Part shown: positions 120-34,693 of the stretch, piece after piece
How the letters are laid out: each line of letters starts with the position of its first letter
Position numbering within the stretch: position 1 is the stretch's first letter
Notes under the pieces: model-generated
The model's database searches: none
What the model saw: the letters and a program-made list of their open reading frames with translations, nothing else
What the model was told of the DNA's origin: nothing
DNA from: Candidatus Bathyarchaeia archaeon
GTDB taxonomy: Archaea > Thermoproteota > Bathyarchaeia > TCS64
DNA length: 34,693 nt
Assembly (NCBI GenBank): GCA_050014495.1
Contig: JBEKDF010000028.1
Coordinates: forward strand, 1-34,693
Direction: 5' to 3'
Translations under genes and position numbers: made by a program

Positions 120-525
120 GTCAAGGGATGTCTTGTGCGGGGTTGCCTAGCGTGATCCATCGCTTCGCGTGCGGGTCATGTTCTCCGCTGGTCTCTCAGC
201 TGTTTGCTTTCATTTGTATGGCTTGTTTTTCTCCTCGTAGAGTATAATTGACGTGCTCAGAGCTTCCGAGAACACGAATTTCTAAACAAGCAAGCGCGCG
301 CAGCGGTCGGGGAAAATGACACTAACTTGACTCCATTGATCTTCATTTCAATTCACAATCTGAAAAACGGAAAAGTAATTTAACAATATGGGGTAAATAA
401 TTTACCGTAGTGATGGGTTTAAAACTGGACCAAGAGGTTGTGGGGGCGCACGCGCATTGTAGCGGCTCGATAAATCGCATCCTTATACCTGTTGCGCGAG
501 ATTAATCACAATGAAAATAACACAT

Positions 526-1329
526 TTAGAGGAATGTTTTGGGCTCTTTTCTGTCTCCATGTTGAGTAGATAACCATTTAGCAACACGAAGTATAGGCTC
601 GTGCTCCCAGCGCCTAGCCCCAGTTGGACAACTCTGAACACAGGCACTGCAGAGGATACACTTCTCAACCTCCGTCTTCACCACATCAGAAACTTCAACA
701 CACCCCGTCGGACAAACACTCGCACATACACCACACAGGTTACAAGTCCCTACATCTGTGACTGGATGTGCGCCTGCGCGTATCGCTTCTGTACGAGTCC
801 GAGTATTCTCAGTATAGGGATAATTGCCCGGTATCATTAATGCTGGAAACTCATCAAGGCTCTTCACTTTTTCCAGTATTTGCATTCCGAATTCATGTGC
901 CTTCTTAAGATCCATTTCATCGGGTCTTCCAGCTCCTATAGGCGTCTTCTCAGTACTGAAACTATGTTGACCAATGAAGGCAGCACCAGCTATTGGACAG
1001 AATCCTAACTCCTTTATGGTGTCATTTAGCTCGAGTAATGAATCCTCAAAATCTCTGTTTCCATACATTACAACGATTACGGCGGGGGTTTTGTCTCCCT
1101 TGACCGTTTTAAGTCGGTTGATAACAGTTGATGGAACTCGTCCTTCGTAGACGGGTGTCGAAAATATCGCCAGTTCGTCTCTTCCCAGTTTATAATTATG
1201 GGAGGTGTCTGGTGGGGTAAGATCAATGGTGTCGGTGTTCAGTTTCATGGCTGAGGCAATTTCTTTGACTATTTTCTTTCCTGTGCTGGTTGGAGAAAAG
1301 TAGACGAGTTTGACTCGGTTGATCATCAT
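526..1329 (-). CDS. EFR1-family flavodoxin/2x[4Fe-4S] ferredoxin fusion protein
   Basis: N-terminal YFSPTST flavodoxin loop, YGNR motif, C-terminal CNLCGVCASVCP and CILCSACVQSCP. Confidence 0.9.
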   Translation of the reverse strand: MMINRVKLVYFSPTSTGKKIVKEIASAMKLNTDTIDLTPPDTSHNYKLGRDELAIFSTPVYEGRVPSTVINRLKTVKGDKTPAVIVVMYGNRDFEDSLLELNDTIKELGFCPIAGAAFIGQHSFSTEKTPIGAGRPDEMDLKKAHEFGMQILEKVKSLDEFPALMIPGNYPYTENTRTRTEAIRAGAHPVTDVGTCNLCGVCASVCPTGCVEVSDVVKTEVEKCILCSACVQSCPTGARRWEHEPILRVAKWLSTQHGDRKEPKTFL

Positions 1330-1596
1330 TTTAGTTCACCATCTGAAGGACAGAAAAGTGATTTAACCGTGAGGGTCAAAAAATTAACCTTGATGAGAGT
1401 CTGTGGATTTTTTCAAAAGTCTATAAGCCAATCTAACTAGTTTTTCATATTATACACGCGCACTTAGAGTTAAGCCTCATCTTACACCAAGGTATTTGAT
1501 GGACGAATAGTCTTATCCTCACTTCCACCTGGGTGCAAACAGTGATTGTATATGCCCGCGTAAACTCTTTTAGACGTATAATCTAGAATATTTGCG

Positions 1597-2160
1597 ATGA
1601 AGATACTTGGAATAGTCGGAAGCCCTAGGAAAGGTGGAAACACCGAACAGCTCACCAGAATAGCGCTGGAAGAGGTCCAGAAAGAGGGGATAGAGGTTGA
1701 ACTCATTAGACTAGCTGGCAAGAAGATAGCGCCATGCACAGGATGCGGAGCCTGCCGATCAACAGGTGAGTGCGTGATCAAGGATGACTTCGGCGCAATA
1801 TATGGCAAGATGGTGGATGCAGAGGGGTTTATACTGACATCTCCCGTTTATTTTGGCGCTGCAACGCCGCAGATTAGTAGCCTTATCAGTAGATGCTTCG
1901 TGAGCCGAAGAAAGAAGCGTGTCTTCGATAATAAAGTCGGTGGCCCGATTGTTGTGGCTCGACGTGCTGGGAAGAACTTCACCTATGCGCAGCTCCTGTT
2001 TTTCTTCATGATATCTGGGATGATTGTGCCGGGCTCGACTTACTGGAGTGTTGCGATAGGGGACGATATGGGTGATGTGGTCAAGGACACGGAAGGTGTT
2101 GAAACAATCAGGAACTTTGGGAAAAAGCTTGCCTGGCTCGCAAAAAAAGTCAACGCCTAG
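1597..2160 (+). CDS. Iron-sulfur flavoprotein (NADPH-dependent FMN reductase/flavodoxin family)
   Basis: GSPRKGGNT, CTGCGAC-x5-C cluster motif, SPVYFG, ARRAG. Confidence 0.9.
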   Translation: MKILGIVGSPRKGGNTEQLTRIALEEVQKEGIEVELIRLAGKKIAPCTGCGACRSTGECVIKDDFGAIYGKMVDAEGFILTSPVYFGAATPQISSLISRCFVSRRKKRVFDNKVGGPIVVARRAGKNFTYAQLLFFFMISGMIVPGSTYWSVAIGDDMGDVVKDTEGVETIRNFGKKLAWLAKKVNA

Positions 2161-2172
2161 ATGTCGCTTGCG

Positions 2173-2736
2173 TCACTTCATCAGCTTCTTCCCGACGCTG
2201 AACGCCTTCTCGAACTGCTTGCCCTGCGCGTAGTAACCCGCGGCTGGGCTCTCGATGAGCTGGAACTGCTCCGTCTTGGAGACGTCCAGCTTCTTGTCAG
2301 TCAGGTACTTACCGTCAGCGTAAGCGCCCACAACTTCGCCTATGAAGAGGCGGGAGTCGACGAGCTCGACGGTCTGCTTGAGCTTCAGCTCGTAAGAGAC
2401 GGGGCACTCGGCGATCATCGGCGCCTTGTGCTCGCCGTACTCTACCTTGAAGACCCCCGACTTGTCCGTCTTCCTACCCGAGACCATGCCGCAGTAGTCC
2501 GTCTTCTCTGCGAGGCTCTTCCCCGGGAAGTTGATGCTGAAGACCCCGTTCTCCTTAATGCCCTCAGCCGTATAGCGGGGGTTCTCCAGCGACACCATGA
2601 ACATCGGCGGCTGGCCGTTTACTTTGGAGAACCATGCCACCGTCATGAATGTGGGCTTCCCCTTTACGGTCGCCCCGATAAGGCAAACCGGCATAGCGTA
2701 CGGGATTGTAGTATTCTCGATCTTTACCTTAACCAA
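2173..2736 (-). CDS. Flavin reductase family protein (flavoredoxin-like)
   Basis: MPVCLIGA...PPMFMVSL...FSINFP...CGMVSG...P-x-I-x-ECP. Start reassigned to TTG at 2736 behind AAGGAG; the longer track ORF runs antisense through the HxlR gene. Confidence 0.85.
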   Translation of the reverse strand: MVKVKIENTTIPYAMPVCLIGATVKGKPTFMTVAWFSKVNGQPPMFMVSLENPRYTAEGIKENGVFSINFPGKSLAEKTDYCGMVSGRKTDKSGVFKVEYGEHKAPMIAECPVSYELKLKQTVELVDSRLFIGEVVGAYADGKYLTDKKLDVSKTEQFQLIESPAAGYYAQGKQFEKAFSVGKKLMK

Positions 2737-2755
2737 CTCTGAAATCTCCTTCACA

Positions 2756-2776
2756 ATACTGGAAAATCGGAAGTAT
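2756..2776. promoter_or_regulatory. Candidate HxlR operator, ATACT-N11-AGTAT, in the divergent spacer
   Basis: Inverted repeat ATACT (2756-2760) / AGTAT (2772-2776) between the divergent flavin reductase and HxlR genes. Confidence 0.45.
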
Positions 2777-2815
2777 TTAAACGGGAAAGGGTAAAGCTGT
2801 ACAGTTGGTGTAGAG

Positions 2816-3160
2816 ATGGGAAGCGATACACTCGACATCTGCCTCGGCTCGGGCGGCCCCATGATAGAGCTCCTCGGTAGCAGGGGCACCCTCGACATAC
2901 TCTGCGTCTTCACCACGGGGACGAAGACGGTGAGGTTCAACCAGCTTAACGGTCTCCTCGGCCACATCAGCACCAAGACCCTCACGGCGAGGCTTAGGGA
3001 ACTCGAGGGGAACGGGATACTGAAGCGGACGGCGTATAACGAGATACCGCCTCGTGTCGAGTACTCGATAACCGAGAAGGGGCAGAGGCTCACCGAGGCG
3101 CTCGTACCCCTTGTTCTTTGGGTGGAGGAGTGGGCCAACAAAGAGGGGCGAGCGCATTAA
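2816..3160 (+). CDS. HxlR/DUF24-family winged-helix transcriptional regulator
   Basis: RFNQL...ISTKTLTARLRELE...EIPPRVEYSITEKG signature. Confidence 0.92.
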   Translation: MGSDTLDICLGSGGPMIELLGSRGTLDILCVFTTGTKTVRFNQLNGLLGHISTKTLTARLRELEGNGILKRTAYNEIPPRVEYSITEKGQRLTEALVPLVLWVEEWANKEGRAH

Positions 3161-3293
3161 ATCTTGAAACGGTTGTGCGCGCGCTTGATCTCCAAGCAAC
3201 CAATAGGGTATACAGGTACCCCCTTTTTTTCCACGCGCCTAGATGTCGTGCGCGCGGCGGAGCGGGTGCACACCAAGAGGTTGTGACCCCGCC

Positions 3294-3728
3294 CTAGGGG
3301 TAGAAGTGGACTATTTTCCTCGGCGCGACCCTCAGAGTGACCTGTGTCTCGGGATCGTATTTTGGGTCGAAGGACGGCTCTTTGTGGTATTTGCCCCACA
3401 CCCAGCGCACGTACTCATCGTAGCCCTCCTCGGGCTCGAAGCCCAGCTCTGCCATGCCGTAGACAAGTGCGCACTTGGAGGGGACGTCACCCTCACTCAA
3501 CTTCGACCCCTGCATGAGGAAGGAGAGCGAGACGTCGCTGTTCCTCTTGAGGTTCTCTACCCTCAGCGACTTCTTTATCGAGACGAAGTAGAAGGCGTTG
3601 TCCCTGTAGTTGTACCAGATGGGTGCCGCGTGTATTGTGCCGTCCTTGTTGTGGCTGCAGAAGGTCGTCGTGTAAGAGTCCCTAAACAGGGTCTCTATGT
3701 CCTCGGGCGTCATCTTGTTGCTGCTCAT
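3294..3728 (-). CDS. Pyridoxamine 5'-phosphate oxidase-like (PPOX/FMN split-barrel) protein
   Basis: DGTIHAAPIWY...NLKRNSDVSL...G-x-AE pattern; ATGA overlap with the upstream AKR stop. Confidence 0.8.
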   Translation of the reverse strand: MSSNKMTPEDIETLFRDSYTTTFCSHNKDGTIHAAPIWYNYRDNAFYFVSIKKSLRVENLKRNSDVSLSFLMQGSKLSEGDVPSKCALVYGMAELGFEPEEGYDEYVRWVWGKYHKEPSFDPKYDPETQVTLRVAPRKIVHFYP

Positions 3729-4930
3729 GAAGCCTCGTGCCCCATAGTCTTTCTTCCCTGCAACCTGTAGCGCATGTCTTTACCCATCGCTTCCCAGTGG
3801 GGGAGCTTCTCGAGGATCGCCTGGAACGTCTTCATCGCCTCTGGGATGTCTATGCCTTGCGGGCAAACCTTCTTGCAGTTGCCACACCCGATGCAGGCAG
3901 ACGGTCGCTGTTCAGGAGCCAGGGCGTCAACATTCATGCTGACCGTGAGGGCGGGCTCGAAGCGGCACTCGTTGTAGAGGGAGAGAAGCATCGGTATGTC
4001 CAGCTTCTTCGGGCACTCCGTGCAGCAGTAGCGGCAGGCTGTGCATGGCAGCATATCCATCATGCTCGCCGCTACACCCTCGAGCAGCTTCCTCTCCTTC
4101 GTATTCAGCGGTTTACCGGCTGAGAACGTCTCGATGTTGTCCTCAACCTGCTGCATGTTCGACATGCCCGAGAGGACGATCTTCACGTTCTGCAGCGCCT
4201 GTAGCCAGCGAAACGCCCAAGCGGGGATGCTCTCATCCGGGCGTACCGCCTTCAGCTTCGCCTCGTTCTCAGCGCTGAGTTTCGCGAGGCCGCCGCCCCT
4301 GACGGGTTCCATGACCCAGACAGGTAGACCGCGCTCTGTCAGAAGCTCATACTTCGCCTTCGCGTCCTGAAGCTTCCAGTCGAGGTAGTTGAGTTCAATC
4401 TGCCCAAACTCCATCTTGTCACCGTAGACGTCGAGGAACTGCCTTATCGTTTCAGCGCGCCCATGCGCAGAGAACCCGAGGTGGTGGATTTGCCCCGCCT
4501 TCTTCTGCTCAAGCAGATAGTCAACTATCCCCCACTTGGGGTTAAGGTACGTCTTTATCGAGTTCTCGTAGACGTTGTGCAGCATGTAGAAGTCGAAGTA
4601 ATCCACGCCGCATTTGACGAGTTGCTCCTCGAAGATTCTCTCCGGTTCGTAGGTTGGGAGGATCGCATGCCCCGGGAACTTTGTAGCCAGATGAAAGCTG
4701 GTGCGCGGGTAATGCTTCAGGATTCTGCCGATGATGTGCTCCGATTCGAATCGGTGATAAGAGTAAGCGGTGTCGAAGTAGTTGACGCCGTGCTCTATCG
4801 CATAGGCGACCATCTTCGACATCTGTGTCTCGTCGACGGTTGCCTCTGGGCCCGTTCCGTTGAGAGGCATGCGCATAGTGCCGAAGCCTAGCGCCGACAA
4901 CTTCTCGCCCTTAAAATCCTTATAGATCAT
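3725..4930 (-). CDS. Aldo/keto reductase with C-terminal 4Fe-4S domain
   Basis: LGFGTMRMP, GVNYFDTAYSY, ATK, MEPVRGG, CTACRYC...CP, CIGCGNCKKVCPQ. Confidence 0.92.
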   Translation of the reverse strand: MIYKDFKGEKLSALGFGTMRMPLNGTGPEATVDETQMSKMVAYAIEHGVNYFDTAYSYHRFESEHIIGRILKHYPRTSFHLATKFPGHAILPTYEPERIFEEQLVKCGVDYFDFYMLHNVYENSIKTYLNPKWGIVDYLLEQKKAGQIHHLGFSAHGRAETIRQFLDVYGDKMEFGQIELNYLDWKLQDAKAKYELLTERGLPVWVMEPVRGGGLAKLSAENEAKLKAVRPDESIPAWAFRWLQALQNVKIVLSGMSNMQQVEDNIETFSAGKPLNTKERKLLEGVAASMMDMLPCTACRYCCTECPKKLDIPMLLSLYNECRFEPALTVSMNVDALAPEQRPSACIGCGNCKKVCPQGIDIPEAMKTFQAILEKLPHWEAMGKDMRYRLQGRKTMGHEAS

Positions 4931-4964
4931 TTTTCTGTCAAATCCGTTTTTCTAAGCTGAGTGT

Positions 4965-6146
4965 TTACCAATCCATCTCTAGGGTTTGCCCCGCGTCGCG
5001 TAGCAGGCTCCTGATAGGCAGGTGCTGCGGACAAACATCCTCGCAGTGGCCACAGCTCACGCAGTTCTTTGTCCACTGCTCCGGCTTGAGCTGCTCCTTG
5101 TATTTCGCCTTGACTGTCTGATCCCTGTCCTTCATGTAGAACTCGTTGAAGAGGCTAAATATCTCTGGAATAGCGACTCCGCTGGGGCAAGGCATACAAT
5201 ACCTGCAACCTGTGCAACCGACGAAGCCCATCTCACGGTACTTCTTCGCGACCCTGTCAACAAGCTTAAGATCTTCCTTCGTCAACTTTCCGACGCCACC
5301 GCGCCCAGCCGAACTGACGTTCTCGACGACCTGCTCCATCGTGCTCATACCACTTAAGACGATACTAACCTCAGGCTGGTTCCAGAGCCACTGCAGAGCC
5401 CACTCCGCGGGCTTCCAGTGATGGTGTCCCTCCTTCCAGAGCTTTGTTATGCCCTCGGGTGGGTTGACGGCTAAACGACCACCAGCGATAGGCTCCATGA
5501 TGACAACAGCTATTCCCTTCTTAGCAGCGTAGCGGAGCCCTTCCTTACCAGCTTGAAACTTTGTATCCATGTAGTTATACTGTATCTGGCAAAAGTCCCA
5601 GTCGTAGGCGTCGACGATCTCCTTGAAGAGGGGAAGTTCGTCGTGGAAGCTGAATCCGAGATTTCTTATCTTACCCTCTTTGATCTTCTTCTCCGCCCAC
5701 TTGAAGACCCCAAGATCGACTATTCGTGGCCAGCTACTTTTCCCGAGGGAGTGTAGGAGGTAGAAGTCGATGTGGTCGGTTTGGAGACGCTGTAACTGCT
5801 CGTTGAAGTACTGGTCGAAGTCGTCGGGGGTGTTGACGAGCCAGCACGGCATCTTGGTTGCGAGCTTCACCTTCTCACGGTAACCGTCCTTTAGCGCCTT
5901 ACCGACGACTACCTCGCTCTGCCCCTTGTGGTAGACGTAGGCGGAGTCAACGTAGTTGACGCCATGGTCGATAGCGTATCTGATCATATATATTGCTAGG
6001 GGCTCATCGATCTTCGAGGCATCACCGCCAATTGTGGGGAGCCTCATAGCGCCGAATCCGAGAGCTGAGGGTTTGAAGTCGAGTTTACCGAACTTTCTAT
6101 ACTTCATTTCTGGCGCCCAAGTAAAGCCATTATTGTTTATAGGCAT
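4965..6146 (-). CDS. Aldo/keto reductase with C-terminal 4Fe-4S domain (alternative start ATG 6107)
   Basis: LGFGAMRLP, GVNYVDSAYVY, ATK, MEPIAGG, CTGCRYCMPCP, CVSCGHCEDVCPQ. Confidence 0.92.
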   Translation of the reverse strand: MPINNNGFTWAPEMKYRKFGKLDFKPSALGFGAMRLPTIGGDASKIDEPLAIYMIRYAIDHGVNYVDSAYVYHKGQSEVVVGKALKDGYREKVKLATKMPCWLVNTPDDFDQYFNEQLQRLQTDHIDFYLLHSLGKSSWPRIVDLGVFKWAEKKIKEGKIRNLGFSFHDELPLFKEIVDAYDWDFCQIQYNYMDTKFQAGKEGLRYAAKKGIAVVIMEPIAGGRLAVNPPEGITKLWKEGHHHWKPAEWALQWLWNQPEVSIVLSGMSTMEQVVENVSSAGRGGVGKLTKEDLKLVDRVAKKYREMGFVGCTGCRYCMPCPSGVAIPEIFSLFNEFYMKDRDQTVKAKYKEQLKPEQWTKNCVSCGHCEDVCPQHLPIRSLLRDAGQTLEMDW

Positions 6147-6169
6147 CTTGAAGTTCTCTCCGTGTTCCT

Positions 6170-6667
6170 TTATTTAGTCATCCCGAGTTCTCGAAGCCAC
6201 TTTGAAATATCATTCTGCGAGGTTTTTACGGCGCTGCCTCGTATTGCTAGACCATTAAGGACGGTTGACTTTGGACATAGTTTCTTGATGTCCATGACGC
6301 TTCTTCCAAGTTGGCTACCTTCGTTTGTGCAAACCGGCGCGATAGTCTTTCCGGTAAAATCGTACTCCGACAAAAATGTTGCAACAGGCATGGGTACCGT
6401 GCCCCACCAGTTAGGGTAAGCAACGAAGACCACGTCGTACGACTGCATGCTCTCGACTTTTGTTTTCAGTTTAGGCCTATACTGCAGATTAAGCTCCTTC
6501 TTGGCCTGCTCTACAACCTCATCGTAATCAGTTGGATACTTGTCCACAGCTACAATTTCGAAGATGTTACCACCTACCTTTTCACGTATCTGGTTGGCAG
6601 TGACCCGCGTGTTACCGGAGTGGGAAAAATAGGCGACAAGAATGGCCCTTTTTTCAGATGTCAGCAT
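6170..6667 (-). CDS. Flavodoxin
   Basis: YFSHSGNT FMN loop, YPNWWGTVP, GKTIAP-x-CTNEGS. Confidence 0.9.
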   Translation of the reverse strand: MLTSEKRAILVAYFSHSGNTRVTANQIREKVGGNIFEIVAVDKYPTDYDEVVEQAKKELNLQYRPKLKTKVESMQSYDVVFVAYPNWWGTVPMPVATFLSEYDFTGKTIAPVCTNEGSQLGRSVMDIKKLCPKSTVLNGLAIRGSAVKTSQNDISKWLRELGMTK

Positions 6668-6687
6668 GGTATTTTAAAAGAACAAAG

Positions 6688-6729
6688 CGTATATATACGA
6701 AGTACGCACAAAAATGTTACATAGTAACA
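6688..6729. promoter_or_regulatory. Divergent promoter: palindromic TATA (CGTATATATACG) and candidate HxlR operator (TGTTAC-ATA-GTAACA)
   Basis: Perfect palindrome at 6688-6699 and inverted repeat at 6715-6729 between the flavodoxin and HxlR starts. Confidence 0.55.
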
Positions 6730-6740
6730 GGAATGATACT

Positions 6741-7088
6741 ATGGACACTACTAAAAAGTTCGAGTATAATTCTGGAATCGAAGCGGCGCTCGACGTGATC
6801 GGGGGTAAATGGAAACCTCTGATGATGTATGCGCTACGTGACGAGACTCTACGTTTCAGCCAGCTACTCGTTAGGGTAAGCCCAAGAATCACGCAGAGGA
6901 TGCTTACTAAGCAGCTTCGCCAACTTGAGGTAGACGGCCTTGTCGCCAGAAAGGTTTACGCGCAGGTCCCTCCGAAGGTGGAGTACTCGTTGACAGATAA
7001 AGGAAAATCACTTATGCCTATCCTCGACGACCTTTGTATCTGGGGATGCGAAAACATGAGAGATCAAGTCCAGTACCCTTGCGTTTGA
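6741..7088 (+). CDS. HxlR/DUF24-family winged-helix transcriptional regulator
   Basis: ALDVIGGKWK, RFSQL, MLTKQLRQLE, QVPPKVEYSLT. ATG 6741 is preferred over 6714, which lies in the operator. Confidence 0.92.
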   Translation: MDTTKKFEYNSGIEAALDVIGGKWKPLMMYALRDETLRFSQLLVRVSPRITQRMLTKQLRQLEVDGLVARKVYAQVPPKVEYSLTDKGKSLMPILDDLCIWGCENMRDQVQYPCV

Positions 7089-7114
7089 CAGATACAATTT
7101 CGCGAAGCACACAC

Positions 7115-7987: not shown

Positions 7988-8266
7988 AAAATTCACTTTT
8001 CCACACGAGTCAGATGCGCGCGCACGTCACTGCTTATTGTTTAATGCGCACGCATAGTATAAGAAGAGAAATAAGGGCATATTTACACCATACGCTCAAA
8101 ATGGATATATACTAACCGAATGTATACTATTGAAAGAATTAAAGATTCCACGTATTACGGGGGAATCGATGCGCGCATGAGCTACTTGGGAAAACTTCGA
8201 ACCTTAGATCTAAAAAATGTCGAAAAATGCACGCGCGCGTGTACAATATTAATATTTAATTAAAAG

Positions 8267-8341: not shown

Positions 8342-8411
8342 TCCCTCCCAAAATATCCACCCAACTCTTATAAACTCTTCCCGACTCCCCCAAACCAAGC
8401 AGTGAAAACGA

Positions 8412-10849: not shown

Positions 10850-10993
10850 GGGGAATCACCGAAAGGGGTAGCTGGTCCCTATATATACCTATTTCTTGGT
10901 AGCTACGCAAAGACTTTGACTAAAACTTTTTGTGATCACCCCTAATAACACTATAATAATTAGAAATTGAGAAATGGATGGGAATAAATCGAT

Positions 10994-12442: not shown

Positions 12443-12511
12443 ATCTTATCAACCAAGACGACCGAAGAAGATTAATAAGTCTTTATTGGTATTCGCACCA
12501 ATGATAAGGAT

Positions 12512-17422: not shown

Positions 17423-17653
17423 ATTCGCGACTTCCAGCATGTTTAAGCCTTAAGCATCACCATCCAACTAAAGCATTATATAACAAGCATCCTTCCCCAA
17501 TTGTTCATATCTGTCAACACCCATTCCTCAACAGTCTATGAAACAAATATGAATAGTTAGATGTGTTACCCATTGCTGCCGGCAAACCCTTTTTAAGGTG
17601 GATTAGGTTAGATTGGGCGAACAAGAGAAGGAGAGACGAGGAGAACCAGCGCT

Positions 17654-21936: not shown

Positions 21937-22246
21937 ACCCGGCATGACCAAGCCAGTACGTAAGTTAACCCATCACTTGCATGAAAACTTAAATATGATA
22001 TAATTAAAATCATGTTAAATTGATATGAGTGAAAAAAAACTGCGCGCGCTATCTCATTGAACCATTTGCCCTTTGCTGAGTTCTATATGGTGTCAAGCTG
22101 AATACTCTCAATCTTCATATAAAAAAATAAGAAGGGGGAAATCCCTTGTTATTTAAATCACTTTTCCACTCGAGAATCAACCTGGAAACGTCCTATAAGG
22201 GTTAGGGCTTAAATATCGTAGCCATTAACTGAGGAAGGTGAAGGGA

Positions 22247-23733: not shown

Positions 23734-23734
23734 T

Positions 23735-24310: not shown

Positions 24311-24423
24311 ATTTGATTCGTGGAATTCATTTTTTTAATTTACTTTTCCCATACTAGCTCTAGAAAGCCTTAAAATGGTTGGGAGGATTGCATAGAAAGC
24401 GGTGCCCCAATGAGGGGCGTAGT

Positions 24424-24509
24424 GCTGGGGTCTCCTAGCCTGGTAGGGAGCGGGCCTGCTAAGTCCGTGAGCCTTGCTCGCGAGGGTTCAAATCCCTCCC
24501 CCGGCGCCA
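24424..24509 (+). tRNA. tRNA-Ser (GCT), long variable arm, CCA encoded
   Basis: Acceptor GCTGGGG/CCCCGGC, anticodon loop CTGCTAA, variable arm TGAGC-CTT-GCTCG, T arm GAGGG-TTCAAAT-CCCTC, G73, then CCA. Confidence 0.93.
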
Positions 24510-24562
24510 AATTTTATCACCCCTATATAAAGAGGTAATTCAATATTAGTTACGAAGAAGCA

Positions 24563-24991: not shown

Positions 24992-24993
24992 AT

Positions 24994-25622
24994 TTACTCA
25001 ACGAAAGCTACTCCTTTTCCGATGAGTTCACACCTCAACTGCTCCGCGTTTTCAAATAGAATCGATTCAATCCCCAGGGATTCGGCAGCATCAACACAGT
25101 TAGTGTTATCATCTATGAAGAGACACACCTCAGCCCTTAGGCCAAGGCGGCTCAGAGTCAACCTATATACATCTAGATTCTCCGAACCCTTCTTGGAGAT
25201 GTCAGGCTTTCTAAGTCCCACCTCACATGAGAATATGACGACGTCGAAGAGTGAGTTTATTCCTTGATCCCTAAGTCGTTTCGCCCTAGATGGTTCCAAA
25301 TTTGAGAGTGCAGCCACCCGATATCCACCTATCCTCAATTTGCTAACAATATCTAGGAGTGCAGGGTTGAAACTAGCAGCATCGAATGTTTTCTCCCATA
25401 CCTCACCGAATCCAGGAGGTGGAAGGCCAAAGTGCTCGAATGTCTCCCTCATCCATGTGATTTCGTCAACCTTCCCCGTCTGAACATCCGCTATACCCTT
25501 CTCAGCGACCTCCCTAAAGTCCCTAACAGGTATGCATATCTCTCCTCGATGTATTGATACGTGGCCAAATTACTCCACTCGACGACGACTCCCCCGAGGT
25601 CGAAGATAAGTCCCTTGAACAA
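24994..25622 (-). pseudogene. HAD-superfamily phosphatase with a 1-nt frameshift near 25534 (pseudogene or sequence error)
   Basis: TTG 25622 gives MFKGLIFDLGGVVV (motif I). After ...EERY the frame shifts to IPVRDFREV...LSN...KPD...FIDD. The 629-nt span is 1 nt short of a codon multiple. Confidence 0.8.
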
Positions 25623-25630
25623 ACTTTCTT

Positions 25631-26419
25631 TCACCCCTCGATAGCCTTCCTAATCTCATCAACAAGCTGCGCTCTCTGGTGAAGGCTACCAGTTATCTGG
25701 AGGCCGTTCACGGTCAGGTTATGGTTAGCAAGGCGAATTGACTCATGAGGCTCTTCCCACTGGTTAACAAGGTAAACAGGTAGAGCTGGGTATATGCTCC
25801 CGATGAGATCCCTTATCCTGAGCGCGGTGGGATAGGAGTACTCGCAGATGGGGTTAAAGACAATGATGCCCTTTCCCTCGTCTCTCTTCGCTCTTTTGTA
25901 CCTAATTTCACGCGGAGGAGTGTAATCCCCAGCTATAATGTGAACCATCTCACCCGTCATCTTCTTGAAACTGCTTGCCTCATAGAGCCTCTCCAACGGG
26001 ACACCCTCTTCGGTGTTGACTGCCTCCGAAGCGATGAACCTGCATTCTTCGCCATTTAAGCATCTGGGGCCATGTTCACACTCCTCTATCAGGTCTCTAA
26101 TCAAAGCGGTTGAGGCACCCTTCCCCTGAGCCTCCTTGAAGGGATTGTAAACACATCGTAATAATACGACACCTACCCTTGGGTGTGGTATGTATGGCGC
26201 AGTAACCTCCGAGTAAAAAAGAAGCTGTGCAACGGGTCCGCCTTCAATATAGGCGATCTTGACACAGGGGCCCGTGGCAGCTAGCATCTTCTCCATCCAT
26301 CGCCGTCTGAGCTGAATGCCCTGTGCATGGAGGACGTCGTTGAGCAATCCATTGCTGCAAACCCTGAATGTGTCATCCAGATTTAACTCAGTGACGTCCT
26401 TCACAATTACTCGACTCAT
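25631..26419 (-). CDS. GNAT-like acetyltransferase with a thioredoxin-like C-terminal part (YoaP-like)
   Basis: C-x-Y...AQGKGASTALI acetyl-CoA loop, C-terminal P-x-CEY...VNG. Confidence 0.6.
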   Translation of the reverse strand: MSRVIVKDVTELNLDDTFRVCSNGLLNDVLHAQGIQLRRRWMEKMLAATGPCVKIAYIEGGPVAQLLFYSEVTAPYIPHPRVGVVLLRCVYNPFKEAQGKGASTALIRDLIEECEHGPRCLNGEECRFIASEAVNTEEGVPLERLYEASSFKKMTGEMVHIIAGDYTPPREIRYKRAKRDEGKGIIVFNPICEYSYPTALRIRDLIGSIYPALPVYLVNQWEEPHESIRLANHNLTVNGLQITGSLHQRAQLVDEIRKAIEG

Positions 26420-26459
26420 TGCTGTAGGGTACCAAACCCCCCAGTATCAGTTTTTCCAC

Positions 26460-27547
26460 CTAAAGCACAGTGAAACCTTCGACGGTCTTCTCATCAAGCC
26501 TCTTAGCGAGCTCTATGATCAGTCGGACTGTGTTCTCAGCATCCTTCAGGCTGAGGAGGCCACTGTGGCTGTGAATATGCCTTGTAGGAACACCAATTAC
26601 GACTGTTGGGCAACCTGCCCTGCTCATGTGGATAGGTGCGCCATCCGTTCTGCCACCCCTCATCTGGCTGAGCTGCAGGGGTATTTGGCACTGCTTCGCA
26701 ACTTCGATGACCCAATTCTTCAGTGGCTGATTCGGGATCATTCCCGCGTCAAATGTTAGGAGACTTGGGCCTTTCCCCATCTTCGCCTGAGCGTCCTGCG
26801 GCTTTATTCCGGGTACATCCCCTGCAATGTCCACCTCGAGGATTATTGCTACATCAGGGTCTACTACATGAGCTATGGTTTGGGCGCCTCTTAGTCCTAC
26901 TTCTTCCTGAACGGTAGCTACTCCGTAGAGTGTGTTAGGGTGCTCAATATTCTGGGACTTAATCCTCTTCATCGTCTCTGCGAAGACAAAAGCCCCAATG
27001 CGGTCATCGAAGGCCTTCCCCATGGCGATCTTCCCATTCTGGATTAGTTGGAATGTGCTATATGGGACGACTGGGTCACCTATCATGACCCCGATCTCCT
27101 CAGCCTCCTCCTTACTCGTTGCGCCAACGTCGATGAACATGTCCTTTTTCTCGACAACCTTCTTCCTTTCCTCCTCCGAGAGGATGTGAGGGGGCTTCGA
27201 GGCAATAATGCCGTGGACATCCCCTTACTCCCTCTGATTACTACTCGCTGCCCAAGGAGGACCTGATCAAACCAGCCACCGAGCTGGTTGAAGGTTAGGT
27301 AGCCCTCTTCAGTCACGCTAGAGACAATGAAGCCAACCTCGTCAGTGTGACCTGTGATGAGAACACGTGGACGATCAGAGTTACCCTTTGCAACAAAACC
27401 GACGGAGCCTAGCTTATCTGTTATGACCTCGTCGACATAGGACACAAGATACTTCTTGAAGAGGCTGTTCACCTCTCTCTCGAAACCCGAGGGTCCGAAA
27501 GCCTCCGTCATCTCCTTCATGAGTTTCATGGATTTGTTGTCGAACAA
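26460..27547 (-). pseudogene. M42-family (TET-like) aminopeptidase with a 1-nt frameshift at 27221-27224 (pseudogene or sequence error)
   Basis: GPSGFE, HTDEVG, LGG in the first frame; PPH, DVGA, KAFDDR, QEEVGLRGA, TDG, HIHS in the second. One extra G in a G4 run restores KGDVHG. Confidence 0.88.
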
Positions 27548-27994: not shown

Positions 27995-28084
27995 ATACTA
28001 CAATTGTATCAACGTAAAAGGTTATTCTCTCATTATTTGAGAGCAATATAAAATAATATGATTGTCCAATAAAATTAGGACGAG

Positions 28085-29089
28085 TTATTTCGTACCCGAT
28101 TCTAGAAACACTAAACTTTCTACAGTTGCATCGAGCCTAGCCATCACACCAATAGGGATTGTAGCCATCGGGTTGGTATGTCCGAAATCGACGCCTGACA
28201 CCATGGGGAACTCGTAGCCTTCCAGAGTGTCTTTTAGGATCATATCCAACGAATCGTTGTCCTTTAGACCCGTTACTGAAGGGATGCGCCCAATCATCAG
28301 TGCCTCGACATCTTGTAGTGCACCGGTTTGCTCTAACTGTCTGAATTTCCTCGCGATATTCCCCGTCGGTCCACCCTCTTCATCCTCCTCGACCATGAGT
28401 ATTTTATCGTGGAGGTTTGGCCAGTAAGGGGTGCCAGCGAGGGAGAGGAGTGTGCCGAGGTGGCCACCGATGAGTCTTCCCTTAGCGATGCCGCCATGGT
28501 GAGTTGTCCAGCCTGGATTATTAACTTCTCGCGGGGTTTCTTCGGGATGTAGGAAGTAATATGGGTCGTCAACATAAGTGGGGGAAGCGGTAATCTTCCT
28601 AGGAGCGTTAGCCCTCATAATCATCTGTTTGAATTCCTCGACCTCCCAGGGCATGAGGTGAGGGTGTGTGAATGTCACGAAAGCGGGTCCTTGGAAGTTT
28701 ATGAGTCCAGCCCTCTCTAGGAGGACCGCATTAAGAGTCGTTATATCGCTGTAGCCGATGAAAACTTTTGCGTTTCTGCGTATCTCAGCGTAGTCGAGGT
28801 AGCCAAGGATGTCGCTTGAGCTCCATCCACCCCAGACGGTCATAACACCGTCTACGGTAGAATCATTGAAGGCATTCATGAGATCTTCTGCTCTCTCTCG
28901 AGGCGTACCTGAGGCATGGCCGTAGCGACGGCAAACATGGGTGCTTAATTCGACGCGTAGTCCCAACTTCTCGAGGTTCTCAATGCCACGACTGACGGCT
29001 GTCTTATCAAGGGCATCCATACTGCTGGCCGGCGCAATAATTCGAAGGGTGTCACCCTCCGTTAGATGCCTCGGCTTGACTAGATCCAT
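28085..29089 (-). CDS. S66-family peptidase (LD-carboxypeptidase/MccF-like)
   Basis: IIAPAS, RAEDL, GG, GYSDIT (Ser), GP, GG-x-L, EE (Glu), DFGH (His). Confidence 0.9.
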   Translation of the reverse strand: MDLVKPRHLTEGDTLRIIAPASSMDALDKTAVSRGIENLEKLGLRVELSTHVCRRYGHASGTPRERAEDLMNAFNDSTVDGVMTVWGGWSSSDILGYLDYAEIRRNAKVFIGYSDITTLNAVLLERAGLINFQGPAFVTFTHPHLMPWEVEEFKQMIMRANAPRKITASPTYVDDPYYFLHPEETPREVNNPGWTTHHGGIAKGRLIGGHLGTLLSLAGTPYWPNLHDKILMVEEDEEGGPTGNIARKFRQLEQTGALQDVEALMIGRIPSVTGLKDNDSLDMILKDTLEGYEFPMVSGVDFGHTNPMATIPIGVMARLDATVESLVFLESGTK

Positions 29090-29892
29090 GACAGTGAGTT
29101 AAGACCTTCAGTAATTAAATGGTTAGGAATGACTTTACGAGCGGTGGTGAGGTAACCCGAGTGCCCGATCATGAGGGTCTCGGGACGCGTCTTGTTCTCG
29201 GCGACCGTTATCCTGCGGAGGATGAGCTCGACAGTATCCACCTCTATGAAGGGTTTAGACTCAAGGGTGTAAACAGTTTTCATTACCTGCTCTATTGTGG
29301 GACTAAAGCTGAGAAATATCCCACTACCCGATAGAGCATCCCAGGCGTGATCGATGACCAGCCATGGTGTTGCCATATCAAGGACGACGGCATCGACGTC
29401 CCTCTCGGTGATCCCAAGTGTCACATCCCCGAGCTTCATCTCCACGATTGATCGTAGGCCCGACCGATCGATGTTCCCAGCAGCAATGTGCTGGCTTCTC
29501 TCGTCGATCTCGTATGTGTAGACTCTCCCATCTGGTTCGACTGCGTTTGCGAGAGACATGGTTAAAGCTCCACTGCCCGTTCCAGCCTCAACAACCGTAG
29601 AGCCATTTCCGATCCCAAGCTGGTAAAGGATGTACCCTATATCCTTCGGGTAGAGAACCTGAGTTCTCCTGTCAGTTTTCATTACCCTGTCCTTAATTAG
29701 TGGTCGAAGTGCATAGAAGCTGATGCCGAGGCTACTGACAATAGTTGAGCCATATGGCTTCCCTATGAGGTCGTCGAGTTGTATGAAACCCTTATGTGTG
29801 TGAAACTGCTCCCCATGTTTAACATTGATCTGATAGGTCCTCTCTTTATCGAGATAGAGGAGTACATCATTTCCCTCAGCTATGGTCTTCAC
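29080..29892 (-). CDS. trmI: tRNA (adenine-N1)-methyltransferase
   Basis: THKG, RRTQVLYPKD, EAGTGSGALT, LDMATPW, PTIEQV, RP...HSGYL. Confidence 0.94.
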   Translation of the reverse strand: MKTIAEGNDVLLYLDKERTYQINVKHGEQFHTHKGFIQLDDLIGKPYGSTIVSSLGISFYALRPLIKDRVMKTDRRTQVLYPKDIGYILYQLGIGNGSTVVEAGTGSGALTMSLANAVEPDGRVYTYEIDERSQHIAAGNIDRSGLRSIVEMKLGDVTLGITERDVDAVVLDMATPWLVIDHAWDALSGSGIFLSFSPTIEQVMKTVYTLESKPFIEVDTVELILRRITVAENKTRPETLMIGHSGYLTTARKVIPNHLITEGLNSLSWI

Positions 29893-29974
29893 GGCGAAGC
29901 ATGGTATCCTCGCGGAATAAAACCTTCACCTCAGGAAGCAGAGTTTTTAGCTTCGTGGAGCGAAGCTCCAGCCC

Positions 29975-30349
29975 ATGAAGAATCTGGATAAATATAACAA
30001 GTTTAGAAAGGATATGAACGAACGAATACTCAATTGCGGCCACCTCGGCCTGAAGAGGTTCTGGGCCTTAGATAGCCGAGCGTACGAGAAAGGAGCTCTA
30101 GATGAAAAGACATTGGAGTTGCTCGGTCTAACCACGAGTATGGTGCTTAGATGTGATGACTGTGTAACCTACCATATAATCAGGTGCATCCAGCTTGGAA
30201 TAACCGACAAGGAACTCTGTGACGCTCTCAATGTCTGTGTTATAGTCGGTGGCTCCATCACAGTACCACACATAAGGCGAGCTTTCGAGACCATCGACAT
30301 CTGCAGGAATATGGAGAAGAACGACCCAGGACTAAAGAGTCTCCTTTAA
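29975..30349 (+). CDS. Carboxymuconolactone decarboxylase/AhpD-family protein
   Basis: GALDEKTLELLGL...LRCDDCVTYH, VGGSI. Confidence 0.88.
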   Translation: MKNLDKYNKFRKDMNERILNCGHLGLKRFWALDSRAYEKGALDEKTLELLGLTTSMVLRCDDCVTYHIIRCIQLGITDKELCDALNVCVIVGGSITVPHIRRAFETIDICRNMEKNDPGLKSLL

Positions 30350-30674
30350 TATTTTGACACCGCGCGGTTTGGTTTACTCAATCACCCGTAAGCTGCTAAC
30401 TATAACTTACCGGAAATCGGAAATCAATACATCACGCGCACGAATGTGTCCATATTTTACGGTGAGACTATTACTGGTACCTTATGGAATGGTGCTTCCC
30501 CGATGAATTCATTTCAACAAATGTATCACTTGAGGCACTCAACACATATACCGAAACCGTAGAGCATCGCACGTTTGAAATCCTTATGCCTAGCTTGAAT
30601 TTATCCACTTAGCACAGCTTTGTCCAATCTTTAGTGCAATGATTGTACGCAACACAGGTAAATAGCTCTTAATA

Positions 30675-30733
30675 TAAAATTATTCTATTAATAAACGTAA
30701 TATTTACTAAATAAAACTTAAATATTCTATTAA
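30675..30733. promoter_or_regulatory. Three phased AT-rich semi-palindromes, candidate Lrp autoregulatory sites
   Basis: TAAAATTATTCTA, GTAATATTTAC and CTTAAATATTCTA centred at 30681, 30702 and 30723. Confidence 0.45.
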
Positions 30734-30748
30734 CTTCGTATTTTTTCA

Positions 30749-31237
30749 ATGTCTGCTGTTACCCTCGATGAAAAGGATAAAGAGATTCTGAAGATGCTCA
30801 TCGAAGACGCAAAGGTGTCAGCTAAGGATATCAGCGCTAGAATAGACTCACCAATCACCACTGTCTACAGTAGAATAAAGAAACTGGAAGACTCTAGAGT
30901 CATAAAAGGCTACAAACCTATTCTCGATGCAGGAAAGTTGGGTAGGCCTACAACTGCTTTCATCTTCGTGAGTTTCACATATCGACCCCCCGGGACAGAG
31001 AAGGACCTAGATCAAAGAGAGGTCGCCAAGAGGGTGGCGAGGTTTCCCGAGGTTCAAGAAGTCCATATCATCACAGGGGACTGGGACTTCCTCATCAAGG
31101 TTAAGGAAAAAGACGTTAACGCGGTAGGTCAGTTCGTAGTCGACAAGCTTAGGACAGTCCCTGGAATATCCAAGACATTAACGATAATGGTCTTCGACCC
31201 CGTCAAGGAGTCTATGGACGTCCCATTAGAGCCTTAA
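30749..31237 (+). CDS. Lrp/AsnC-family transcriptional regulator
   Basis: LDEKDKEIL...TVYSRIKKLE...VIKGY, ITGDWD. Confidence 0.93.
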   Translation: MSAVTLDEKDKEILKMLIEDAKVSAKDISARIDSPITTVYSRIKKLEDSRVIKGYKPILDAGKLGRPTTAFIFVSFTYRPPGTEKDLDQREVAKRVARFPEVQEVHIITGDWDFLIKVKEKDVNAVGQFVVDKLRTVPGISKTLTIMVFDPVKESMDVPLEP

Positions 31238-31272
31238 CCTCTTATAACAAGTGGGAGCCACTTTACACATCG

Positions 31273-32436
31273 GTGGTCTTAGTTTTGGGTTCACGCTATA
31301 AGGAACTCGGTGTCGACGTAAAAAAACCTGGCGTGGAACAGTTTAGAAATGCTATTGATGACATCTACCCAGATGCATTCTGCGTCGTATACCGAGACCC
31401 TAGTGATGAATCTATGGGGCTCGTCCTTCACACCGATTCCGCTGGGACCAAACCAATCCAGGCATATCTAATGTATAGAGAGACCGGTGAAGCATCTTGG
31501 TTTAAGGGACTCGCTCAAGACGCACTCGCCATGAACATCAACGATATTCTCTGTGTAGGCGCAGAGCCAATGAGCTTTGTTGACTACGTCGCCTATAACC
31601 CAATAAATATTGACCGCATCGCGATGCTCGGTGCACTAGCAGAGGGCTTCAAAGAGTGTAAGACACTCCTTGCAGGCGAGGGTACTCCAATAATCTTTGC
31701 AGGGGGTGAGACAGCTGACCTCCCAGACCTTCTCAGGACCTTAGATGTTTGCGTCACTATCCATGGGCGTGTGCACCTGAACCGCGTAATTTCGGGAGAC
31801 GCGGTTAAGCCGGGAGATGTTATCATCGGGCTTAGAAGCGGTGGTAGGGCCCGCTTCGAGAAAAAAGCGAATAGTGGAATAATGAGCAATGGCCACACCC
31901 TCGCGAGGAGCTGCTTACTCTCACCGAGCTACCTTGAGAAGTATCCCGAGATATCTAATCAGAGAAAGGGAAGATACACCGGGAGGTTCAGACTCGATGA
32001 CACGCCACAGAGTCTCAGCGAATCAATAGGTGAGGCCCTACTACACCCTACGAGGCTATTCTCTCCAATCGCTTCGGCGATATTGAGGGACTCGGGTGAA
32101 GGCGTACATGGAATGGTCCATAATACCGGTGGAGGGCAGACTAAGTGCCTCCGAGTCGGTAAGAATGTGAGATATATCAAGGACAGTCTCCCCGACCCCG
32201 ACCCCATCTTCTCCCTAATCAAGAGCGAATCCGGCATCGAGTGGAAGGAGATGTACCAAGACTTTAACATGGGTGTCGGTTTTGAGATCACGATCGACCC
32301 TGATTACGTTGAGCGAGTCCTCCGCGTCTCGAAGAGTTTCAGCATCGATGCGCAGGTAATCGGGCGATGCGAACAATCTAGAGGAGAAAATGCTTTAGAG
32401 ATCAGGACGCCTAACGGCGTTTTCCATTATAACTAG
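31273..32436 (+). CDS. purM: AIR synthase (PurM-like) protein
   Basis: DSAGTK, AMNINDI-x-C-x-GA, GGETAD, SNGHTLAR, HNTGGG, FNMGVG. Confidence 0.8.
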   Translation: MVLVLGSRYKELGVDVKKPGVEQFRNAIDDIYPDAFCVVYRDPSDESMGLVLHTDSAGTKPIQAYLMYRETGEASWFKGLAQDALAMNINDILCVGAEPMSFVDYVAYNPINIDRIAMLGALAEGFKECKTLLAGEGTPIIFAGGETADLPDLLRTLDVCVTIHGRVHLNRVISGDAVKPGDVIIGLRSGGRARFEKKANSGIMSNGHTLARSCLLSPSYLEKYPEISNQRKGRYTGRFRLDDTPQSLSESIGEALLHPTRLFSPIASAILRDSGEGVHGMVHNTGGGQTKCLRVGKNVRYIKDSLPDPDPIFSLIKSESGIEWKEMYQDFNMGVGFEITIDPDYVERVLRVSKSFSIDAQVIGRCEQSRGENALEIRTPNGVFHYN

Positions 32437-32517
32437 AAATTTACTGTAAGTGAGAGTTTCTGTTTTTTCTTATAATTTTTAACTAATTAAGGTGAATGCG
32501 CGCTCGCATTGTAGCCC

Positions 32518-32922
32518 TTAGTTTTTTTGGCTTTTAAAGTATTTTTTCATGGGTTCCCAATAATAGTCTTTCCATCCCTGGCTAATGTCCTCCACTACTT
32601 CTTCAGGTACTCCCTCGTGGATCATGATCAGCTCCGTTCCACCCCTTATTTCCTTCAGAATTATTGCAAGTTTGGAAGGGGATGCCCCTTCTGGAAAATC
32701 CGAAGAAATCCATTCCTGTACGATTTTCTTACCCAGCTCAAGCTCAGTGTACTTGCCTGTTATATATCCGTCCCATGCTGTAAATTCGCCTCCAACCCTT
32801 GGATCTGAGGTAGCTGAGCTGCCAGTAAATTCTGTTTGCTTCTCCGCGTCGATGTACGCCTTGTAGACCTCTTCTGGCGTCGCGGGGATAATGACTGTTT
32901 GTGTAATCTTCACTGTCTTCAT
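32518..32922 (-). CDS. SRPBCC/AHSA1 (START-like) domain protein
   Basis: ATPEEVYKA, GGEF-x-x-WDG, IVQEW, GW-x-x-YYW. Confidence 0.88.
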   Translation of the reverse strand: MKTVKITQTVIIPATPEEVYKAYIDAEKQTEFTGSSATSDPRVGGEFTAWDGYITGKYTELELGKKIVQEWISSDFPEGASPSKLAIILKEIRGGTELIMIHEGVPEEVVEDISQGWKDYYWEPMKKYFKSQKN

Positions 32923-33021
32923 AATACTTCAACACCTTGAGATGTCCCAGGATAGCCCAATTCATTAATCTTGAGGACATCATGCGTGCGACTCGAAGAG
33001 TATTCCTGAATTAGTCTATTT

Positions 33022-33726
33022 TCATCCTTTAATTATTCTGAAGCGAGCCACTACCCCCGAACCAGAAACCTTCTCTCCCTCGAAGGCCACAGGGGACTTG
33101 AACCAAGCTGATAAGGCTGAGCCGGCCACACTCACAGGTAGGGAACCCATGGATGCTAAACACCTTGGACGGTTCTTTACCTGCCATAATAATTTCAGTT
33201 CTAATATGACACTTTCCCCATTTACCTTAACGATGATGGATTCAGCTGCCCCCAGTGCGTCTACAACAACTGACCTTAACAACTCCCTTACATCTCTCTC
33301 GCTACCCTTCATCGTAGTCTTTACTGCCACATAGCCCGGCGCAGGAAATACTAAGCCGCGACCCTCTAAATCCGCTTCAACAGCCTCCTTAAGTGAGCTC
33401 ACCTCGATGTTGAGATTATTCTGTTCAGCCCCGATAGCGACGTAAACGAGGGAGACTTCTTCATTTGGAGGCAAATAGATAGCCCTCGACTCCACACCCT
33501 TCTCCTTGAGAAGCTTCTCCACGCCCGTATAACTTCCTTCCACCATCGCCCTCAGACGTCGCTTTCCTGTAGCAAAGGTCGGTATCTGGATAATAATAGC
33601 CCCAACAATCATGCAGACCAGACCAATGATCGTAAACAGAACATTGTATAACCTATAATACGAGACTTCAGCAACCGCAACGCCGCCCACCAATAATGCG
33701 ACTCCGATCATGAGCAGTCTATTCAA
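33022..33726 (-). CDS. Hypothetical membrane protein (two N-terminal TM helices plus a soluble domain)
   Basis: 234-aa ORF with two hydrophobic segments, AIYLP and C-x-x-x-x-GS motifs. Confidence 0.7.
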   Translation of the reverse strand: MNRLLMIGVALLVGGVAVAEVSYYRLYNVLFTIIGLVCMIVGAIIIQIPTFATGKRRLRAMVEGSYTGVEKLLKEKGVESRAIYLPPNEEVSLVYVAIGAEQNNLNIEVSSLKEAVEADLEGRGLVFPAPGYVAVKTTMKGSERDVRELLRSVVVDALGAAESIIVKVNGESVILELKLLWQVKNRPRCLASMGSLPVSVAGSALSAWFKSPVAFEGEKVSGSGVVARFRIIKG

Positions 33727-34036
33727 CGACTATCAACCGCCATAAATACTGGTAACCAATAAAACCAATGCATCCCTCAAGTGAATACATAGACGAGATT
33801 CTCCTGATACCCTGCTTAGAGGATATTTAAAACTCCCTAAAACCATCAAATACATGAGTAACTCACGTGTATGAATAAGTCCAGTTATTTCTTCAAAATC
33901 CAATGTCTGGATTAGACGCAATGGCTCATAGGGATCCACCTGAACTTCAGCATCTCGGGTATCATAATACAAAATCAAAAAATCGAAAAGGGGATGGTAT
34001 ATTTAGTGGCGTCGATTGTATCCTTCGGAGATTAAT

Positions 34037-34519
34037 TTGTCTGAAAGAGTTAAAACTCTAAAAATATTTGCTGAGTTGGTCTTTGGTAGATTTGATGGCT
34101 CAGTGAAGGATCTGAAAGAGGTCGAGGCCGAGTGGAAACCAGTGGGTGAAGCAAATGACATCAAGTGGATTCTAACACACTTATCCCAACAATGGAATGT
34201 GGGCGTGACAAGGGCAGTGAAAGGTGATCCCAACTTTAAACCCGCCGGCTGGCCCGATGATTACGTCGGCAATAAGTCATTCTCGCTAGTCAAGATAATG
34301 AATGACCTTAAACAAGGCAAAGAAAATGTTTTGCAAAGTCTGGACAAGCTTAACCCAGCGGATCTGGATGTTGACGTTAACACGCCCCGTGGGGTTAGGA
34401 AGCGTGAGAATATGCTCATGATGTTACTGTCTGAGATACCTCACCATGAAGGGCAGATCGCCTACATTAGGGGCGCAGTCGGACGGAGAAGGCTGACTGA
34501 GCCTTCTTTCCTTGCTTAG
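34037..34519 (+). CDS. DinB/YfiT-family protein
   Basis: W-x-P...N-x-I-x-WILTH...HHEGQIAYIR; TTG 34037 follows GGAG. Confidence 0.82.
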   Translation: MSERVKTLKIFAELVFGRFDGSVKDLKEVEAEWKPVGEANDIKWILTHLSQQWNVGVTRAVKGDPNFKPAGWPDDYVGNKSFSLVKIMNDLKQGKENVLQSLDKLNPADLDVDVNTPRGVRKRENMLMMLLSEIPHHEGQIAYIRGAVGRRRLTEPSFLA

Positions 34520-34693
34520 TTGGTCTAACTTTCTGTTAGAAGTAGTGTCCGAGCTTTACATTATTTTGAAGTGCGCGCTGGCTTGTCCCTAAAATAGACA
34601 CCCCCAAATAACCCTCCAACAAAAGAGTAAAACCACCACATAAATGACTCAGCCACTCACTTACAGCAAAAACAAGCCCACACCCATCACAGC

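Follow-up and report, generated by a model that had tools for sequence, protein, structure and literature searches.

Short (GC)n runs at rearrangement junctions in Bathyarchaeia as possible Ku-independent filler

We analyzed a stretch of 34,693 nucleotides (the window) that is the whole of contig JBEKDF010000028.1 (C28) in a Candidatus Bathyarchaeia archaeon assembly (GCA_050014495.1, here G000; 3.11 Mb, 92 contigs, 96% complete), and followed the short runs of alternating G and C in its spacers across the genome and its class. These runs stand at deletion and rearrangement junctions, are absent from most of the parental sequences that could be mapped, join the parent in register, reach a length ceiling near 10, vary by transition-like changes and abut the ends of a family of insertion sequences (IS). 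We consider the chances evenly balanced that they are filler of about 5-10 bases, laid down independently of Ku by a writer that uses a fixed template; that some host enzyme writes them, all candidate writers taken together, is rather probable. The initial annotation of the window had offered three origins, namely binding sites for a chromatin or architectural protein, Z-DNA-prone supercoiling sinks, and target or scar motifs of a gene-capture or transposition system. Its last proposal held up, with the tracts being junction scars and also the insertion target of an IS family, and the first two did not. Other genomes carry G-numbers below, X12 and X15 are sequencing runs with strain contigs, and f4, f17 and f23 are families of the class. 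The sequencing runs that contain the window are mostly peat metagenomes, and no RNA data set was among those listed.

The tracts themselves are real and strongly overrepresented. All 16 that had been listed are present in the sequence, and the four housekeeping spacers described as free of them (10850-10993, 12443-12511, 17441-17653 and 24311-24562) indeed contain no GCGCGC, GCGCAC or GTGCGC hexamer. The tract placed at 8015 extends to 8014-8027, and the purine-pyrimidine (RY) alternation, correct in general, is not strict at 30359-30368 (ACCGCGCGGT). Across G000, in which our own dicodon model called 3418 genes, intergenic GCGCGCGC occurs 427 times against 16.2 expected under an order-2 Markov null, bearing out the predicted intergenic enrichment, and its density is 76.1 per 100 kb in intergenic versus 3.5 in coding DNA, a 22-fold difference. 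Only (GC)n is in strong excess, runs of AT, AG and CT being near the shuffle level. Runs of 6, 7, 8, 9, 10 and 11 bases number 261, 143, 174, 121, 90 and 4, compared with 55, 13, 2.4, 0.6, 0.2 and 0 after shuffling, and the ceiling near 10 is similar in G013 and G016. About 800 intergenic runs are present in G000, and the same intergenic runs were found in 9 of 11 further class members sampled.

Association with broken gene order, the other genome-wide prediction, was also seen. A run of at least 7 bases lies in 108/495 spacers whose gene order is broken in a relative and in 4/181 with kept order (p = 6e-12; a further 1596 spacers were without data). When G000 was compared with itself, alignments of repeats (paralogs) ended at runs 176 times versus 77 in controls; 167 of 645 runs lay at an alignment end and 5 were crossed. 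We then mapped the sequence on either side of 999 runs, taken from G000 and from about 1.8 Mb of DNA belonging to seven relatives. The 328 flank ends that could be mapped comprised 48 IS ends, 67 that were crossed by the alignment and 213 that stopped, and at 165 of these 213 non-IS breakpoints the parent continues without any GC run. Both flanks were mapped for 63 runs (30 crossed, 10 with an IS on one side, 23 other), and in 17 of the last 23, one of them a duplicate, the run is in neither parent. Runs close internal deletions of 169, 321 and 451 bp in paralogs, seal both ends of the scraps of one primase-like gene and sit mid-way in broken genes. Of 256 abrupt repeat ends that are not IS ends, a perfect hexamer is found at 65 (control 5%) and a near hexamer at another 37 (control 11%). 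The initial annotation had noted that the tracts bracket accessory genes; we keep this observation and reread it, since they do so because DNA is gained and lost there.

The best-documented case lies at 22041-22049. A contig from X12, a close strain of the same species, aligns with the window up to 22041 and again from 22049, with 423 letters between that share none with the tract at 22042-22048; a contig from X15 also begins at 22049, and G002 and G012 have about 3.5 kb at this site. From the alignment coordinates, rather than from the letters themselves, we read the 423 bases of X12 as the putative parental allele.

The form of the joint suggests templated synthesis. Among 132 ends examined, 108 had a last base that matched the parent; there the last parental base and the first added base were G then C in 39, C then G in 29, T then G in 19, T then C in 7, A then C in 6, A then G in 6, C then C in 2 and G then G in none. 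The run was thus out of phase with the parent end in 2/108 (p = 2e-7 against a hand-estimated expectation of 18%). Microhomology of 0, 1, 2 and 3 nt was seen in 73, 65, 23 and 4 cases, so that 92/165 had at least 1 nt, compared with 25% by chance. The joint looks as if it had been copied from (GC)n. The base or bases before the run are most often AT in G000 and, judged by eye, often A or TA in f17 and f23, as would suit a template with a lineage-specific edge. A fixed template with such an edge and about 10 copyable bases would explain the register, the flanks and the ceiling together.

The imperfect members of the family are likely aged runs. One-mismatch variants comprise 223 G>A, 61 G>T and 28 G>C, close to the spectrum of strain single-nucleotide polymorphisms in the window (131:26:14 for the same three classes). 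RY alternation matches this decay, since transitions keep purine and pyrimidine; GCGCAC and GTGCGC are, on their sequence, likely to be old copies, and selection for Z-DNA is not needed. That the runs are functional sites, either protein-binding motifs or supercoiling sinks held by selection, we regard as barely plausible. Their strong intergenic excess, palindromic form and RY alternation would suit such a role; yet they are rare in spacers of kept gene order, lie within broken genes, and thin out in the 40 nt ahead of start codons (0.45 per kb versus about 1.1-1.2). Their density peaks close to stop codons (1.85 per kb) and in convergent spacers that are short. No flank consensus was found in G000, the variants resemble neutral polymorphisms, and the run at 30359 is absent from four relatives. 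Neither the positional conservation nor the promoter-linked position expected of a Z-DNA or protein-binding element was seen. A microsatellite growing by slippage was set aside as well, as only GC is in strong excess and a single 2-bp change was found among 40 crossing tracts.

The runs have a close relationship with an IS5/IS1182-like family, a DDE_Tnp_1 element with a weak DUF772 match and its subfamilies. A run of 5-10 bases abuts 65 of the 69 IS ends in G000, confirming the suspected link with IS ends, and copies in distant genomes are placed likewise. The family uses the runs as its insertion target: its ends abut the motif, and the empty site keeps it, as in X12, where the GC run at 34578 continues without an IS. 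Pairing IS flanks into empty sites gave no contiguous pair; by arithmetic on our IS-end scan, IS-terminal GC plus a 4-bp GCGC duplication would give the best fit to the 10-bp ceiling. Two further observations concern this family. An element that we take, from its motifs, to be IS110-like, with a GC-rich leader, is inserted between an IS5/IS1182-like end and its GC run in G000, G012 and G016 (G000 C17:57461-58785 and C48:5777-7101; loci L073, L091, L110 and L127), and the leader holds a stretch complementary to its target, as a bridge RNA guide would. At locus L224 (G109 C1:586031-590005), the outer flanks of an IS copy form an exact 8-bp inverted repeat around a GC run, adjoining a DUF72-like gene.

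The scars might instead be derived from the IS itself, with elements that carry or duplicate GCGC(GC) joining breaks or deleting nearby DNA and later being lost between their terminal runs. We consider this distinctly unlikely, a minority reading in which insertion into breaks is followed by loss. Besides the abutting ends, it draws on the distribution of the family, which was found in 15 of the 30 tract-rich genomes (at least 90 octamers, as raw counts without correction for GC content) and in 48 of the 221 others among the 251 class genomes (p = 0.003, kin not independent; at most eight candidates scored per genome). Moreover, the parent next to an IS outer flank also lacks GC in 9 of 10 cases, and an IS is reported to be able to enter a break without duplicating its target (bioRxiv 10.1101/2024.06.02.596822). 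Against it, the 40 crossing tracts contain no clean footprint (offset 0 in 38), that is, no short added duplication relative to a colinear parent. The target motif is missing from the parent at the 165 breakpoints described above. Furthermore, the family was not found in the other 15 of the 30 richest genomes, including the single-contig G089 (601 copies, 86% complete), which has no DDE_Tnp_1 match, nor in G096, G207 or G015. In G089, G096 and G207 the runs are no less fresh than those of G000, the ratio of perfect to one-transition runs being 601:129 in G089 and 512:173 in G000. An excision footprint was rejected on these same grounds, the absent duplication, the motif lacking in the parent and the transposase not found where scars are fresh. 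Conversely, several IS-bearing genomes have few runs (G182 34, G152 9, G197 9 and G058 6 copies), and the X12 run at 34578 stands without an IS.

Among host enzymes, one candidate was the machinery of non-homologous end joining (NHEJ), in which Ku, a LigD-type polymerase and a ligase/phosphoesterase would write the filler. A complete operon is present in G000 (C3:64206-67463, locus L054; polymerase, Ku, ligase-phosphoesterase, then DUF72), Ku tracked the family in a first sample of 30 relatives (15/18 members, 0/12 others), and the accessible text of an earlier study describes joining of self-complementary 3' ends by PolDom (PMC3898472). This candidate is already largely refuted and very improbable. 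Ku occurs in 66 of the 251 class genomes; outside the genus it was found in 3/22 tract-rich and 49/212 other genomes (p = 0.42), which argues against Ku as the writer. Neither the single-contig G089 nor G169 yielded Ku, and the Ku-bearing G001 and G010 have one tract copy each. Apart from this count, G001 (L177-L186), which is filed in the same genus as the window, shows a GC content of 33% over the 187 kb sampled and hardly any runs, yet keeps Ku together with a divergent LigD polymerase.

A core enzyme might instead suffice. Ends held by one or two GC pairs could slip and extend on each other, for example by the replicative primase PriSL, with no separate template. Such an activity would explain why no special gene was found. 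In 4 of the 5 tract-rich genomes examined for PF01896, PriS is the sole match, and PriSL is reported to anneal strands via 2-4 GC pairs and to mediate error-prone break repair in Saccharolobus (PMC12019639). We nevertheless judge this unlikely, if still a serious alternative. The insertions in that study are mostly of 1-2 bp (CC, GGC, CGG, CCG) rather than alternating runs of 5-10, PriS is universal while many class members have 0-10 copies, parents that end in A or T still gain a run (38/108), and the lineage-specific flanking bases are left unexplained.

Other polymerases were tried and rejected. PolX is in all six tract-free f4 genomes and was found in 2/5 tract-rich genomes. The primase-like gene on C20 has a weak match (E about 1e-4; PriS plus another family) in 2 of 5 tract-rich genomes and none in 3, and no conserved RNA lies beside it at four homologous loci; the C53 type is present in 12/251 genomes, and no related loci were returned for it. 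For a primase-like family of 255 aa seen in G207, G000 contains no ortholog. As an observation in its own right, the C20 locus (C20:26047-27707, L056; L261-L264) joins two genes, one for a 114-aa protein and one for a 439-aa PriS-like protein whose C terminus carries a long extension; this module stands in different gene contexts in five genomes and has 320 homologs. No reverse transcriptase was detected in G000 (no RVT_1 match and no motif of that kind; 96% complete). A search of G000 for a template RNA by conserved context, folding and motif returned tRNAs, IS ends, an IS110 leader and a small ORF (open reading frame), with relatives partly sampled.

We propose the following sequence of events for a Ku-independent writer with a fixed template. 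After a double-strand break, the last one or two bases of the broken end would anneal to a short fixed (GC)n template, possibly of RNA, and a polymerase acting without Ku would copy this template onto the end. The self-complementary tails of two ends would then pair and be sealed. Because (GC)n pairs with itself, a tailed end could be joined to any other, and deletion and the capture of foreign fragments would be favored. The resulting scars would later decay and serve as targets for the IS5/IS1182-like family. A bolder version of this proposal, which we hold tentatively and with somewhat less than even confidence, is a telomerase-like end joining of Bathyarchaeia. In it, a dedicated polymerase that is not a reverse transcriptase would use a small RNA of its own as template and extend any broken end by up to about 10 bases. 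All ends would become mutually sticky, which would drive deletion and foreign-DNA capture, and the IS family and the IS110 element, which targets the end of that IS, would have adapted to the scars.

Several observations weigh against a fixed-template writer. GC-like sequence is present at the breakpoint in 48/213 parents, and of 87 ends mapped under strict criteria, 46 have additional bases that separate the run from the breakpoint, with no clear consensus. Most abrupt non-IS repeat ends (154/256) are scarless, from which we conclude that tract writing is one route among several. The junction evidence comes from within the genus of the window, and the IS family is enriched in tract-rich genomes. 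Finally, no writer or template was found in G000, and neither extra primase-like gene (C20, C53) tracks the tracts; the writer locus may be too divergent, unassembled or lost, or the idea may be wrong.

The individual tracts of the window are collected in Table 1, and relatives add detail for several of them. At the 294 tract, a GC run follows the same IS end on contigs C6, C7, C64 and C77, and both ends of the window contig are IS ends. The EFR1-like ferredoxin gene has other contexts in G012 and G016, as has the LLM gene in G016, with no parent mapped to the junctions at 446-457 and 8014-8027. Six repeat homologs start just right of 1451-1463, and one G002 alignment crosses it. At 30359, alignments of G002, G008, G012 and G015 stop at 30350-30355, and all four lack the run at the orthologous place.

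Table 1. GC tracts of the window and what each assignment rests on
Position	Assignment	Basis or context
294..302	GC run beside IS end (subfamily B)	IS end fills contig start, inner terminal repeat about 277-293
446..457	Likely decayed scar, downstream of EFR1-like ferredoxin gene	Sequence
1451..1463	Likely decayed scar, truncated left edge of repeated cassette-type site	Common to G002
3174..3184	Scar after HxlR gene	Common to G008 (2 bp shorter there); G016 homology ends
3232..3238	Short decayed run within block common to G008	Sequence
3247..3256	Scar at exact end of 1.76-kb block, 91% identical to G008	Alignment
8014..8027	Likely scar, one of four in LLM gene / tRNA-Met spacer	Sequence
8044..8056	Likely decayed scar	Sequence, decay spectrum
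8169..8179	Likely scar	Sequence
8227..8245	Likely decayed or compound scar	tRNA-Met end, the start of homology to relatives, is 20 nt away
22041..22049	Best-documented scar, 7 bases in place of 423	Close-strain alignment
30359..30368	Scar just beyond end of homology with relatives	Relatives without run
30433..30442	Likely decayed scar, same replaced spacer as 30359	Sequence
32496..32503	Run between purM and SRPBCC-like gene	Two strains with single-base indels close by
32981..32990	Decayed scar where G012 homology ends	Alignment
34571..34578	Run with likely IS insertion (subfamily A)	IS end motif; IS end fills 34579-34693

The remainder of the window includes genes of the archaeal core set, among them those for RNase P protein 4 and diphthine synthase and, presumably, proteasome and exosome subunits. 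The block at 1492-3255 (Isf-like, flavin reductase and HxlR genes), which ends exactly at the tract 3247-3256, is 91% identical to G008 compared with 76-83% for core blocks, so that a recent transfer is likely. Positions 1506-1531 hold one example of a repeated site of about 28 bp with about 163-174 copies in the genome; the site lies at most 70 nt upstream of a same-strand ORF in 76 cases and at most 30 nt from the end of the previous ORF in 76. Its arrays on G000 C24, C50, C53, C72, C74 and C75 (L057, L058) are tandem and consist mostly of DUF4760-family genes with a common N-terminus and some unrelated genes, and they look like an integron-like cassette array. What we take to be an M42-type peptidase gene (25452-27547) is divided between two reading frames at about 27083-27140; three other strains have an additional base at 27220, and four have one at 25534, which suggests an assembly error or a recent frameshift.

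To our knowledge, Ku is missing from most archaea, and it is an open question by what means broken ends are joined there without homology. If our proposal is true, a fixed self-complementary filler would constitute a new logic of end joining, in which every break receives the same sticky end. The scars would then allow hundreds of deletions and gene captures in each genome to be counted and dated, in an abundant lineage of sediment and peat. An enzyme able to put a defined tail on whatever DNA end it meets could serve as a tool. Our literature search, which covered main texts and few subscription journals, found no prior description of such GC filler.

Several known systems share features with the tracts. 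The HIP1 element is common in coding DNA. Like the tracts, HIP1 of cyanobacteria is a hyper-abundant short GC-rich palindrome, but the accessible parts of two papers describe a fixed octamer linked to methyltransferases (PMC4390886, PMC5861425), whereas the tracts mark junctions, are of variable length (6-10 bp) and are scarce in coding DNA; a palindrome of this type was rejected on their variable length and coding depletion. Elements of the IS5/IS1182 type have ends that abut the runs, and the tracts at 294 and 34571 are IS flanks; set against this, about 69 IS ends face about 800 intergenic runs in G000, footprints are absent, and half of the tract-rich genomes yielded no member of the family. 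N-nucleotide filler consists of bases, present where ends have been joined, that are non-parental. The archaeo-prokaryotic NHEJ pathway likewise leaves such bases and relies on synapsis by short microhomology, as far as the accessible text describes it (PMC3898472); the tracts differ in having one fixed sequence, and although the Ku, polymerase, ligase and phosphoesterase genes are all present in G000, Ku does not track them across the class. The PriSL-mediated microhomology end joining of Saccharolobus islandicus is archaeal, independent of Ku and favors GC pairs; the portion of the study available to us describes mostly 1-2 bp indels and no alternating filler of 5-10 bp (PMC12019639). A further comparison is with short interstitial telomeric sequences, which telomerase inserts at repaired breaks. 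The tracts differ from these in their prokaryotic host, their self-complementary dinucleotide and their near-10-bp ceiling, and no TERT-like reverse transcriptase was found. In the accessible part of that work (PMC2246262), a fixed repeat is inserted at breaks, often with deletion, old copies gather mismatches, and register between break end and insert is kept far more often than the 25% expected by chance, the signature that implicated telomerase; the tracts too are inserts mostly absent from the parent and nearly always in register with its end.

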